A DNA stretch of 64,000 bases from an uncultured Chthonomonadaceae bacterium. Its GTDB lineage: Bacteria > Armatimonadota > Chthonomonadetes > Chthonomonadales > Chthonomonadaceae. Every line of letters starts with the position of its first letter. The first letter of the stretch is position 1. The notes below the pieces were generated by a model. It was not told the DNA's origin, searched no databases, and saw nothing but the letters and a program-made list of their open reading frames with translations. The stretch spans positions 96,001 to 160,000 of the forward strand of contig CAWIEK010000049.1 in the NCBI GenBank assembly GCA_963835065.1, given 5' to 3'. Position numbers and translations under genes: made by a program. This document shows positions 7,413 through 12,334 of this stretch, piece by piece.

Positions 7413-7579
7413 GCGAAAACATGCGGGTCAACTGTTGTCGTGAGAACAGTTGGCACGCTGTGATATGCTGTTTGGATTTATCAGTCTCAAACCTAACGCA
7501 TGAAGATGATTTGCTGCTGTAGAGCGGCTTTCAAATACGAAACCTACAGAGTTTGTGAGTATTGGAGGATTTAGGAAAC

Positions 7580-8978
7580 GTGAAGAAGTTCGACCTCAAT
7601 ATGGAAAGCGTTTTGGAAGATTGGGAAGTTTTTCATGCACTTAGGGAAATTATTGCCAATGCGATAGACGAACAGGTGTTGACACGGACAGAGAATATTC
7701 GTATCTATAAGGACGAGCAGAATAAATGGCACATCCGAGATTTTGGTCGGGGGTTACGATACGAACACTTGACGCAAAATGAGAATCAGGAAAAACTCAA
7801 GCAGTCTAACCTCGTCATCGGTAAATTCGGCGTGGGTCTCAAGGACGCAATGGCTGTATTGAACCGTCATAACATAGGCGTTTTAATACAATCCCAGTAT
7901 GGCGACATAACGCTCGAAAGTTCCTCCAAACATGGTTTTGAGGACATAGTTACTCTACACGCTGTTATCGTCACCCCTTCTGATGCTCAGATTATCGGCA
8001 CGGAGTTTATCCTTGAAGGGGTCAAGGACAGTGACATTGAATATGCCAAAGAATTCTTTTTGTTGTTCTCAGACGAACAGTTATTAGAGAAAACTTCCTA
8101 TGGGCAAGTTCTACAGAAAGGTAATGACTATGCTCACATTTACATTAATGGTGTGCGGGTCGCCCAAGAGGACAATTTTCTCTTTTCCTACAACCTTACT
8201 TCGTTAACACAAACAATGCGCAAGGCACTCAACCGAGAGAGAACCCATGTAGGCAGAACCGCTTACACGGATCGTGTGAAAGCCATTTTGCTGGAGTGCA
8301 AGAGCAAGGCAGTAGCAGAACTATTGGCTATCGAACCTGAGCAAATATGAAACCGGGCAATGTCATGATGAATTAAACTGGATTGATGTTGCGGTTCATG
8401 CTTGCAAATTGCTAAATGCGACAGGCAAGGTCATCTTTCTCACATCAAGAGAACTTATCAATGCAAAGAATATGGTTGATCAAGCGGCTAATGAAGGTTT
8501 GAAAATTGTTATTGTTCCTGAGAATGTTAAACTGAAACTCCGAGGCTTAATAGACGTAAAAGGCAGTCCTGTACGGGATTTGGCCGAATTTATGGATGAG
8601 TGGAACAACAGTTTCGAATTCTCATTTGTCCCTGAAGACGCATTGACGGAAAGCGAAAAGGCAGTCTATTCCAAAACTGATAGTATACTCCAACTCGTGG
8701 GAGGCAAGCCAAGCAACGTAAAAGTAATATTGATTTCGGAAACAATGCGTGTAGACGTAGGGAGGTATCAAGAAGCGCTTGGAGTGTGGGAAGAAACCAG
8801 TCGGCGGGTAATTATCAAACGTTCTGAATTGCGAAGTCTCGAAGACTATGCAGCAGTGCTGCTTCATGAGATAGCCCATGCTATTAGTGGTGCATCTGAT
8901 GTCAGCAGAGAGTTTGAGCATCAGCTAACCATACTGTTAGGTAAGGTTGCTTCCAATGTGCTTCTTGGTGGTATCTGA
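7580..8978 (+). CDS. GHKL (HATPase_c) ATPase fused to a C-terminal HEXXH metallopeptidase-like domain; split by +1 frameshift near 8334
   Basis: ALREIIANAIDE (N box), IRDFGRG (G1), IGKFGVGLK (G2), GTEF; C-terminal LLHEIAHA. Removing one A in ATCGAACCTG joins ORFs 7562-8350 and 8409-8978 (..AIDLSKYETGQCHDELNWIDVAVHACKLLN..). Visibly AT-rich. Confidence 0.8.
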
Positions 8979-9034
8979 TGTATAATGAAGTAGGGCGAAG
9001 TCTTGCGCACTATTGCTTTCAGGAGACGAAAACC

Positions 9035-9250
9035 ATGGGTAACGCCTTTTCTGTAGAGCCAACAGATGAAGAAACCGCAAAAGTAGAGTTGGAATTGCAC
9101 TCCCTGTTTGCCGCAATGGATCGCATAGACGAACGGATTGCCAAAAACCAGCAGGAAACAGACCGCTTGAAAGCCAAAACAAAGACGAAACTCGCCCAAT
9201 TGAGGACACTCACTAACTACACTACTACTCACGCCGACGCGCCCGTATAG
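9035..9250 (+). CDS. Small coiled-coil hypothetical protein
   Basis: AGGAG RBS at 9021, ATG 9035; heptad-like MDRIDERIAKNQQETDRLKAKTK. Confidence 0.55.
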   Translation: MGNAFSVEPTDEETAKVELELHSLFAAMDRIDERIAKNQQETDRLKAKTKTKLAQLRTLTNYTTTHADAPV

Positions 9251-10176: not shown

Positions 10177-11236
10177 TCATTCGTCCGTCTCGCGGGCCGG
10201 TACAGGAGACGCAAGCCGCCGTGCTTCCTCCTGATAGCGGTTAAAGCCCAACTGCTGAAAGAGGGGAATAAGCCTGTCCAAGTTTACGGGTGAAACCTTT
10301 GCTGATTCCAGCGAGAACGGCAGGTCAGCGTCACGTTTCAGCGTCACCATTGCTTTCGAGAGCGGCAGGTAATCCCGCGCTTTTTCCAGATTTTCGCGCT
10401 TCTTGCCCTTGATCTGCTCCAGGTTTTCCAACACGCTTTCCATGCTGCCGAACTGCTGCACAAGCTGCGCGGCGGTTTTCAGGCCGATACCTTCCACGCC
10501 CGGCACGTTGTCTACGGTATCGCCCGTAAGCGCCATCACATCCACGACCTGCGCGGGCGTAATTCCCTTGTTGGCCTGTAATCCTGCCGCATCCAGCATC
10601 ACATCCGTATGCACATCGAAAAGCGTCACGCGGTCACAAATCAACTGCTCCAAATCTTTATCTTTGGATACCATGCGGATAGCAACATCGGGGTGCTGCG
10701 GATCGTCCAGCACCTGCTGCGCAAGCGTGGCGATGATGTCATCCGCTTCCAATCCCGACACCCCGATAATGGGGATGCCGAACGCCTGTATTACCTGAAA
10801 GATGCGGTCTATCTGAATCGTCAGGTCGTCGGGCGTGGCGCGGCGCGTTCCCTTGTACTCCACATAGCGTCCGGTTGCAATCGGCTCCGGCGGCATTTGC
10901 CCCAACGTTTCTTCCAGCCCGCCTCCCAATGGGTCTACCGGCTCCTGCTCCGTTTCTTCTCGGCGGACGGGCGGCAGGGAAAACCCCGCATTGCCCGGAT
11001 GCAGCATCAGGTACTGCAAATACAGTTCGTCCCGAAATGTCCTGCCCCGGCGCGTCAATGGCAACGGCAACATAATCCGGCTGAAACTTGGACAGCAGTT
11101 TCAGCAGCATACCCGTAAATCCGAACGTGGCATTGGTAGGTTCCCCGGTATCAGGGCTGAACATAGCCGTGCGAATCGCATAATAGGCGCGAAACACCTG
11201 CGCATAGCCATCAATAATGTAAAACGTTTTCGGCAT
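10177..11236 (-). CDS. Stand-alone 5'-3' exonuclease / flap endonuclease (PolI N-terminal-like); +1 frameshift near 11045-11048
   Basis: IIDGYAQVFRAYYA, TNATFGF, AIDAPG/RTFR, EYKGTR, EADDIIAT, SKDKDL, LTGDTVDNVPGVEGIGLKTA. Confidence 0.85.
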
Positions 11237-11529: not shown

Positions 11530-11952
11530 ATGCCTGCCAATGATATTTACCATGACGCCTGTGTTCGTGCTCTGCAAAAGGACGGCTGGACGATCACGCA
11601 CAACCCGCTGACCATCACTGTCGGCAGACGAGACCTGCTTATAGACTTGGGCGCAGAGCGGATGCTGGCGGCAGAGCGCGAGAGCAGGCGTATCGCCGTA
11701 GAAATCAAGAGTTTCGTTAAACTATCGCCCGTTCAGGACTTGAAGGAAGCGCTTGGACAGTTTGTCCTCTATGAGGACGCTCTCGCTCGTTCCGAAAATC
11801 AGTCCGACCGCGTTCTGTATATGGCAATTCGTGAGGAAATCTATGATGATCTCTTTATGGAGCCGATTGGACAGATGCTGTTGGATAACAGGCGATTGCG
11901 TCTGATTGTTTTCGATGAAAATGAGGAGGTTCTTGTACGATGGATACCCTAG
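11530..11952 (+). CDS. xisH: XisH family protein
   Basis: MPANDIYHD..AL.KDGWTITH.PL, IDLGAE, IAVEIKSF, ALGQF; extended -10 TGTGGTATAAT at 11500-11510. Confidence 0.85.
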   Translation: MPANDIYHDACVRALQKDGWTITHNPLTITVGRRDLLIDLGAERMLAAERESRRIAVEIKSFVKLSPVQDLKEALGQFVLYEDALARSENQSDRVLYMAIREEIYDDLFMEPIGQMLLDNRRLRLIVFDENEEVLVRWIP

Positions 11953-12116
11953 CGCATTATCGTCAAATCATCCGCGAACGGCTGCTTCCGCTTGTAGAAC
12001 GGCGCTATGCCAACGCTGACATTACCAACGAGGCGGTATTCGATGAAGTCAATGACCGTTATCTGATTATGTCCGTTGGCTGTCAGGGGCGCTGCAAACG
12101 AGTACACGGCTGCTTG
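11940..12116 (+). pseudogene. xisI: XisI family protein, 3'-truncated
   Basis: MDTLAHYRQII..FDEVNDRYLIMSVG..RVHGCL, then the expected IHIDI..KIWIQ.DGTE half is not seen. Confidence 0.7.
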
Positions 12117-12334
12117 GCGCAACTCCAAGCGGGATATCATCATAACGGCTGTACGAATCCAGTCGTTCGCCACTTTCCAGCGCCTGACGGCACCTTATCA
12201 ACGGCGTCCGTACGAATCGCTGGAAGCAGCGCATCATCCCGCTCTGAGTAGCTCATCCGACATTCCTCCCTGCCTCTAATGCCGCTCTTCCTGATTGGTC
12301 AGGACAAGGCCGTAGGCTCAATTCCAGTGTTTCT

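Follow-up and report, generated by a model that had tools for sequence, protein, structure and literature searches.

The window analyzed here, a stretch of 64,000 nucleotides from the genome of an uncultured Chthonomonadaceae bacterium, contains a gene of a real, mobile and uncharacterised protein family that is solidly associated with defence. Its members, referred to below as GHL-proteases, join a predicted N-terminal GHL ATPase to a predicted C-terminal zinc protease domain.

The split gene and its low-GC islet

The GHL-protease gene resides in an islet of deviating composition. GC content drops from about 0.60 to 0.41–0.45 at approximately position 7420, right after the stop codon of an amidohydrolase gene (7412), and is back up by approximately 9000–9230. 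Bases 7414–9228 have 43.7% GC vs. 57.0% for the genome, a value as low as this occurring in only 0.2% of 8,793 1.8-kb windows. The islet is single-copy in the genome, and GC3 amounts to 0.50 and 0.40 in the two halves of the split gene and to 0.78 in the upstream amidohydrolase. The abrupt compositional shift pointed out in the original prediction is thus real, but the description of the insert as AT-rich goes too far: 44% GC is low for the host, not strongly AT-rich. The surroundings are of a housekeeping type and include, besides the amidohydrolase, genes encoding an ABC-2 permease and a 5′-3′ exonuclease. Neither terminal repeats nor a target duplication nor an integrase were found at the islet, and a promoter and terminator scan gave no excess over shuffled sequence. 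Since the flanking amidohydrolase and permease genes lie far apart in both same-genus genomes, an empty site is not demonstrable. An inverted repeat with 17-nt arms and a 2-nt loop (7423..7458), located at the left margin of the islet just 3′ of the amidohydrolase stop, is possibly the terminator of the upstream gene. Elsewhere in the window, xisH is followed by xisI (11530–12251); the match of the encoded XisI covers no more than the first 62 of 110 positions of the profile, and XisI appears to be truncated or frameshifted.

The N-terminal part of the GHL-protease gene (7580..8350, plus strand) begins with a GTG start preceded by GGAGG/AGGA and forms a 256-aa frame. The C-terminal part follows in the +1 frame (8316..8978, plus strand) and encodes a helical/beta linker and then a Wss1/SprT-like minigluzincin domain at approximately 8610–8975. 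What divides them is a single extra base at position 8334 of the plus strand. The proposal that removal of one A at about this position restores a frame of approximately 465 codons is supported: reading through, with an X at the break, yields a protein of 465 aa with which single-ORF homologs of 59–70% identity align over 98–100% of the length. A 151-nt contig of sequencing run X1, which may not be the source sample (window 8243–8394; depth 3; one other letter differs), is devoid of base 8334, and its gap falls where the homologs require it; the single-ORF homologs are unbroken across this position. In addition, frameshifts in this assembly split 7 out of 109 well-conserved G001 orthologs (45,270 aa covered), corresponding to a background probability of about 7% for a gene encoding 465 aa. 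These three grounds make an assembly error the probable cause of the break, and we consider an intact gene in the living cell quite probable. A programmed frameshift is not favoured, given the continuous homologs, the X1 contig and the lack of a slippery run. One of the seven split orthologs is the 5′-3′ exonuclease gene located approximately 2 kb away (10177–11234, minus strand), which carries a frameshift near 11045 relative to the intact G001 copy.

The 71-aa ORF that follows (9035–9250, plus strand) was rightly described as having a ribosome-binding site of its own (GGAG), yet the suggestion that it encodes a substrate or partner of the protease did not hold. It starts 56 bases past the GHL-protease stop on the same strand and is part of a unit (8976..9250, plus strand) that we attribute to the host lineage and that includes a TATAAT box at 8981–8986. 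Homologs of the ORF were found in none of the 95 GHL-protease loci and in 7 of 40 relatives, all without the GHL-protease gene, where the copies are usually the first gene of a 59-aa plus 114-aa pair. Five further copies of the unit are present in this genome, four of them with the second gene. DNA likeness to the relative locus L099 begins at 8976, at the GHL-protease stop codon, includes the TATAAT box and ends at about 9193; the second gene is missing here. Hence, a common cassette was rejected on the basis of the separate TATAAT, the multicopy host-lineage family and the point where the L099 likeness starts, and the ORF is a separate host-lineage unit unrelated to the GHL-protease gene. 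Searches of Pfam, NCBIfam, PADLOC and PHROGs returned nothing meaningful for the 71-aa product, and its Atlas scores were at chance level (0.80 or less). The unit of 59 aa and approximately 114 aa, both products being coiled-coil-like and arranged in a TA-like layout, occurs at window 9035–9250, in L099–L109 and on contigs C2, C12, C16, C50 and C57 of genome G000; it is unannotated and scattered in the host family, with up to four matches per relative.

Domain architecture of the GHL-protease

All four elements of the anticipated GHKL set (EIIANAID, DFGRG, GKFGVG, and GTEF) are present in the N-terminal frame at 7580–8350. On the plus strand, the ATPase motifs of the window protein map to 7646–7660 (E23/N27), 7739 (DxGxG), 7820 (GxFGxG), and 7997 (GT). 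The Pfam HATPase_c_3 match is weak (E 3e-5), and the family profile aligns with the N box and G1 of GyrB. Among 113 diverse homologs the ATPase motifs are invariant or nearly so, with E25, N29, D56, and R221 being strictly invariant. R221 is the arginine of LNRE in the S5-type transducer, where it presumably plays a role. An AlphaFold2 model of the intact homolog P0005, built on the alignment of 113 sequences (pLDDT 93.4), was compared with known structures. Its residues 7–262 resemble GRP94 (Z 12.5), T6 topoisomerase II (11.6), MORC2 (11.5), ParE (11.5), and MutL (10.5), and the alignment runs through the transducer of MutL, ParE, MORC2, and GRP94. In Foldseek searches with the homolog model, Hsp90s were the top PDB matches, while the viral library returned uncharacterised phage proteins followed by rIIA. 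By these fold matches, the N-terminal part is predicted to be a GHL ATPase of the Bergerat fold with an S5-like transducer. Only a linker of approximately 85 residues separates the transducer from the protease fold.

The predicted LLHEIAH zincin motif is found in the +1 frame, which is open from 8316 to 8978. Judged by conservation, the key residues of the C-terminal domain (plus strand) are HEIAH (8865–8879), an Asp (8898–8900), and a Glu (8916–8918). Sequence-based searches gave a weak Pfam SprT-like match (E 0.02); in a profile comparison with the PDB, Wss1 ranked first, but with an E of 0.35. Residues 351–463 of the P0005 model resemble Wss1 with Z 9.4. When folded alone (pLDDT 93.9), the C-terminal domain of the window protein likewise had Wss1 as its best match (Z 9.4, rmsd 2.9, 106 of 122 residues aligned), followed by Schizosaccharomyces pombe Wss1 (8.0), YbeY (8.0), SPRTN (7.9), and proabylysin (7.5). 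A Z of 9.4 is a moderate value, archaeal minigluzincins and the RNase YbeY lie no more than 2 units below it, and Foldseek reported no match for this domain at E ≤ 0.001. The domain is thus best described as a minigluzincin fold and a predicted Wss1-like zinc protease. Structure comparisons of the models therefore agree with the originally proposed fusion of a GHKL ATPase to an HEXXH zincin, including the order of domains: a GHL ATPase with its transducer comes first and the Wss1-like domain second.

HExxH is present in 105 of the 113 homologs, and in 104 it is combined with D(+7) and E(+13); in the 84 locus-derived sequences, H, E, H and the downstream D and E are invariant (84/84). A histidine at H+6, the position of the third zinc ligand of Wss1, occurs in only 3/113, and the absence of the third His makes the metal site non-canonical. 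The conserved Asp of the family aligns with the Asp that follows this His of Wss1 (E 0.35). Asp or Glu can serve as the third zinc ligand in zincins, according to the available text of a published description (PMC3890501), so a working zinc site in the C-terminal domain is plausible; the third ligand may be acidic, i.e., the Asp at H+7 or the Glu at H+13. Eight homologs (P0159, P0193, P0198, P0226, P0227, P0239, P0244, and P0255) keep the GHL motifs and have lost HExxH, forming a natural pseudo-protease branch like Tiamat, a system discussed below.

Family distribution and gene neighbourhoods

A total of 5,231 of the 7,999 scored candidates match the 465-aa protein. The 120 matches listed cover 95–100% of it, are nearly all 59–70% identical and mostly 455–495 aa long, and all (120/120) carry PF25856; one 772-aa tandem form among them shows 48% identity. 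By full-length homology to these PF25856 carriers, the protein is assigned to Pfam PF25856 (MPN635_N), the family name being taken from the Atlas output. The eponymous gene of Mycoplasma pneumoniae, mpn635, is mentioned in the literature found here only as a non-essential gene deleted together with mpn633-638, and a full-text search for MPN635/PF25856 retrieved no characterisation beyond this deletion. Longer homologs add TPR, Sel1, LRR, KTSC, zinc-ribbon, TerD or methylase domains. Three tandem forms of 772–823 aa (P0007, P0124, and P0150) contain two GHKL modules and then one protease domain, and recall sacsin-type repeats.

Single-ORF homologs number in the thousands in bacteria and archaea, and intact copies exist in cultured Bacillus, Paenibacillus, and Salinibacter. 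An exact-pattern scan of species-representative genomes detected at least 376 coding stretches, of which the best 80 were kept; these come from DPANN and other archaea, Acidobacteriota, Chloroflexota, Bacteroidota, and Bacillota. Mobile copies comprise 15 viral-contig loci and 13 plasmid records, and one distant match (24%) was found among 50,697 records of cultured phages. The gene is absent from all 40 close relatives of the host and present in 1 of 300 other genomes of its phylum. In the tree, archaeal and bacterial sequences interleave, and the rows nearest to the window protein are archaeal as well as from Chloroflexota/Acidobacteriota. A single clade of the window protein with L062 and L200, candidate copies of the same lineage, was rejected (p-AU 0.006); the window protein with L200 alone was not (p 0.08; long branch). 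The scarcity of the gene in the phylum, its absence from close relatives and the interleaved tree bear out the original prediction of horizontal acquisition, and the window copy is supported as a horizontally acquired single gene.

To describe the gene context, ORFs of at least 120 aa were called within 2.5 kb of the GHL-protease gene in 95 loci. Pfam was scanned at E ≤ 1e-9 with 294 of the 322 neighbour cluster representatives, the 28 omitted being those of viral loci, and labels were assigned by hand and spread by BLAST cluster. Within 2.5 kb, 21 of the 80 genome loci contain restriction-modification (RM), CRISPR or other named defence genes (RM in 14), and nine contain a PF10107 gene pair. 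Mre11-Rad50 genes were labelled in seven loci; two of the seven have identical GHL proteins, and for these two the label combines BLAST clustering with weak ATPase matches. RmuC genes occur in six loci, mobile-element genes in ten and TA genes in five, and in 33 of the 80 no neighbour was labelled as defence, nuclease, TA or mobile. As a control we used taxon-matched 5-kb windows located 5–10 kb upstream, for 32 of 46 eligible loci. Restriction/defence genes were found at 11/32 loci in the proximal 2.5 kb vs. 3/32 distally, and the three nuclease partners (Mre11-Rad50, the PF10107 pair, and RmuC) at 8/32 vs. 0/32. On the tree, the partner labels are dispersed, with 9, 6, and 6 changes, which indicates that the links recur and do not descend from one island.

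Individual mobile copies have similar company. On a Salinibacter plasmid the gene is positioned between hsdS and hsdR, the sole case inside a type I operon; other plasmid copies are found near coiA and sbcCD, near Piwi and PLD genes, or near genes for a helicase, an exonuclease and OLD. In seven viral contigs, forming two near-identical groups, it comes after a repressor gene and a small ImmA-type or unknown gene, and an integrase gene is visible downstream in five of them. These copies (L086–L088, L092–L094, and L096) thus lie in the lysogeny module of temperate phages, a slot typical of accessory genes expressed by lysogens. No conserved antitoxin or regulator adjoins the GHL-protease gene. 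PADLOC recognised neither half of the split gene nor three intact homologs, and NCBIfam gave nothing above cut-off for the halves. Of the original proposal of a defence system, the defence context of homologs is therefore what stood: they occur next to RM and other defence genes in excess over the distal control, and no PADLOC model matches. The link of the GHL-protease family to defence is solid. In the window itself no RM gene adjoins, and the gene stands alone among housekeeping genes.

The PF10107 neighbours form a tandem pair that has N-terminal Cys motifs and a coiled coil (L050:4746–5755; also L008, L039, L043, L044, L049, L052, L053, L059, and L120–L199). Both genes belong to PF10107, a PD-(D/E)xK family like RmuC according to the available part of a published classification (PMC3424549). 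One paralog retains D..E/D-x-K, while the other has no E-x-K; judged by these motifs, the pair has the appearance of a separate heterodimeric nuclease module, with one active and one inactive paralog, distributed in archaea and bacteria. PADLOC gave no match for it. A metagenome scan with the second gene yielded at least 446 relatives, of which the best 80 were kept. The GHL-protease gene adjoins the pair in 16 of these 80 loci (two near-identical), in both gene orders, and in 7 of 23 loci with long flanks (16/23 being without it); both fractions are upper estimates, since the ranking favours query-like sequences and the query came from GHL-adjacent copies. Six of the 16 loci fall in the lower half of the list of 80. 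Among these best 80, the GHL-protease gene is the commonest neighbour of the pair, the next cluster occurring in seven loci. This association is previously undescribed. The pair is absent from the genome studied here, where only one weak single match was found, on another contig.

Possible roles and relation to known systems

Tentatively, and with somewhat less than even confidence, we regard the window protein as a horizontally acquired, likely ATP-gated protease serving as a defence accessory to nucleases. In GHL proteins, the N-terminal clamp closes on ATP and the substrate is kept within the dimer's lumen, as outlined in the available text of a recent preprint (bioRxiv 10.64898/2026.09.30.754977), and Wss1 is described, in the accessible part of its report, as a DNA-activated protease of DNA-protein crosslinks (PMC4559962). 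Taken together with the DNA-cutting or DNA-resecting partners, the GHL clamp and the Wss1 action are most simply read as those of an ATP-gated protease that would strip or cut DNA-bound proteins. The GHL module would form a dimer clamp closing on ATP and holding DNA or a protein-DNA complex; the protease domain would cut the bound protein, supposedly a DNA-bound foreign one; and the stripped DNA would become open to the partner nucleases. The dimer clamp, the DNA dependence and the foreign target are proposed here by analogy. As the gene is alone in this genome, its product would act alone or with unlinked nucleases. Against this reading count the missing third His, the 8 of 113 homologs without HExxH, the moderate Z, the 33 of 80 loci whose neighbours received no label, the housekeeping surroundings of the window copy, the absence of a PADLOC match, the lack of an obligatory partner, and the split state of the window copy.

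A less probable, indeed unlikely, alternative is that the GHL module binds a phage protein in the manner of Hsp90, whereupon the protease cuts a host protein and the infected cell arrests; the nucleases would then be mere co-residents of the same islands. Consistent with this are the solo occurrence here and in many loci, the prophage copies placed in the repressor-integrase stretch as an accessory-gene slot, and Hsp90 as the top whole-chain fold match. C-terminal TPR, Sel1 or LRR fusions, found in 5 of 48 longer homologs scanned, also suggest protein recognition. However, almost all partners that recur are enzymes that cut DNA or act on DNA ends, the PF10107 link is reciprocal and tight, and an adjoining antitoxin or regulator is not conserved.

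It is also conceivable, and in our view improbable, that the C-terminal domain cuts no protein and only binds metal or substrate, a role also suggested for the Wss1-like fold of Tiamat, with a paraMORC-like ATP clamp looping DNA or remodelling restriction/nuclease complexes. MORC and paraMORC proteins were proposed to act in this way in RM operons, as far as the accessible text of that study goes (PMC2292703), and the corresponding fold of Tiamat has no HExxH in the preprint's available description. The missing third His and the branch of 8/113 homologs that keeps the GHL motifs without HExxH point in the same direction. Yet, the invariance of H, E, H and the downstream D and E in all 84 locus-derived sequences speaks against this possibility, as a dead enzyme would be unlikely to keep the general-base Glu fixed.

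About as improbable is a role in repair or self-maintenance and not in defence, i.e., removal of enzymes trapped on DNA (methyltransferases, topoisomerases, integrases or relaxases) on behalf of the host or a mobile element, like that of eukaryotic Wss1/SPRTN with Mre11-Rad50. The Wss1/SPRTN fold, the DNA-activated crosslink proteolysis by Wss1 and the Mre11-Rad50, methyltransferase and integrase genes adjoining homologs would be in line with it, but the extreme patchiness and cross-domain shuffling of the family fit conflict genes better and mpn635 is non-essential in M. pneumoniae. Finally, a two-gene system in which the protease has the 71-aa product as its substrate, inhibitor or partner, and for which the position of the ORF 56 bases past the stop on that strand might argue, is very improbable in view of its absence from all 95 GHL loci, its presence in GHL-free relatives (7/40) and in five more copies in this genome, and the L099 likeness that starts at the GHL-protease stop codon with a TATAAT of its own.

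Among known systems, the GHL-protease most resembles Tiamat and the paraMORCs; it is no member of the former and, judged by published descriptions, probably none of the latter. With Tiamat (TmtA) and the Tiamat-like, NO VEIN and sacsin proteins, as presented in the available text of the preprint (bioRxiv 10.64898/2026.09.30.754977), it shares an N-terminal GHL ATPase with a transducer and a Wss1-like fold further along, as well as defence-island and type I RM contexts with helicase, nuclease and methylase neighbours. According to the same text, an anti-phage role has been shown for few GHL ATPases; it adds that effectors can come in trans and that a metallopeptidase is often found at the end of ATPase-DUF3684 fusions. 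In contrast to Tiamat as described there, the GHL-protease is only 465 aa long, has no DUF3684, TPR-like repeats or Fold B, and ends with the zincin helix instead of a fused PD-(D/E)xK (DUF3883) nuclease; HExxH is kept in its family and missing from the Wss1-like fold of Tiamat. Neither the halves nor the three intact homologs matched a Tiamat model in PADLOC, and no DUF3684 or TPR Pfam match was found in the middle region.

Prokaryotic MORC and paraMORC1-5 proteins, as portrayed in the accessible text of PMC2292703, are alike in their GHKL plus S5 module and their sporadic lateral spread in bacteria and archaea; their neighbourhoods are linked to RM and include methylases, Vsr, Z1, AIPR, and SF2 helicases. 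Their C-termini are RE-fold nucleases, TIR or unnamed extensions, and the words "peptidase", "protease", and "HEXXH" do not appear in the accessible main text of that study. The GHL-protease family, unlike paraMORCs, has no fixed SF2 helicase partner and is set apart by the published descriptions. In our check for MORC-type RM neighbourhoods, 14 of the 80 loci had an RM gene at a distance of up to 2.5 kb, a type I operon was seen once, and most loci, including the one in the window, had neither. As for Wss1/SPRTN and archaeal minigluzincins (available parts of PMC4559962 and PMC3890501), they provide the best fold match to the C-terminal domain and share HExxH and, at corresponding positions behind it, G..D and F. 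The GHL-protease differs from Wss1/SPRTN, as far as described there, in the missing third His ligand, the absence of SUMO, ubiquitin or Cdc48 motifs, a fused ATPase that is GHL and not AAA+, and its prokaryotic and mobile nature.

In the literature searched, no prokaryotic GHL protein turned up that carries an intact Wss1-like protease; machine-predicted defence tables or preprint supplements may list the family. More speculatively, and on balance we think it unlikely to hold in full, the GHL-protease might be a compact equivalent of Wss1/SPRTN in prokaryotes, equipped with a GHL motor of its own; as an ATP clamp, it would grip DNA and proteolyse the proteins bound to it. Together with the PF10107 pair, it would then constitute an undescribed three-gene anti-phage system of archaea and Acidobacteriota, a catalytically live, split counterpart of Tiamat with its dead Wss1-like fold and fused PD-(D/E)xK nuclease.

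Since the window copy is solo and split, the value of the finding lies in the family and its link to the nuclease pair. A family of approximately 465-aa proteins with copies in cultured hosts offers a small handle on a possible use of ATP-coupled proteolysis of DNA-bound proteins in prokaryotic defence or repair, and it bears on the past role of the dead Wss1-like fold in Tiamat and NO VEIN.
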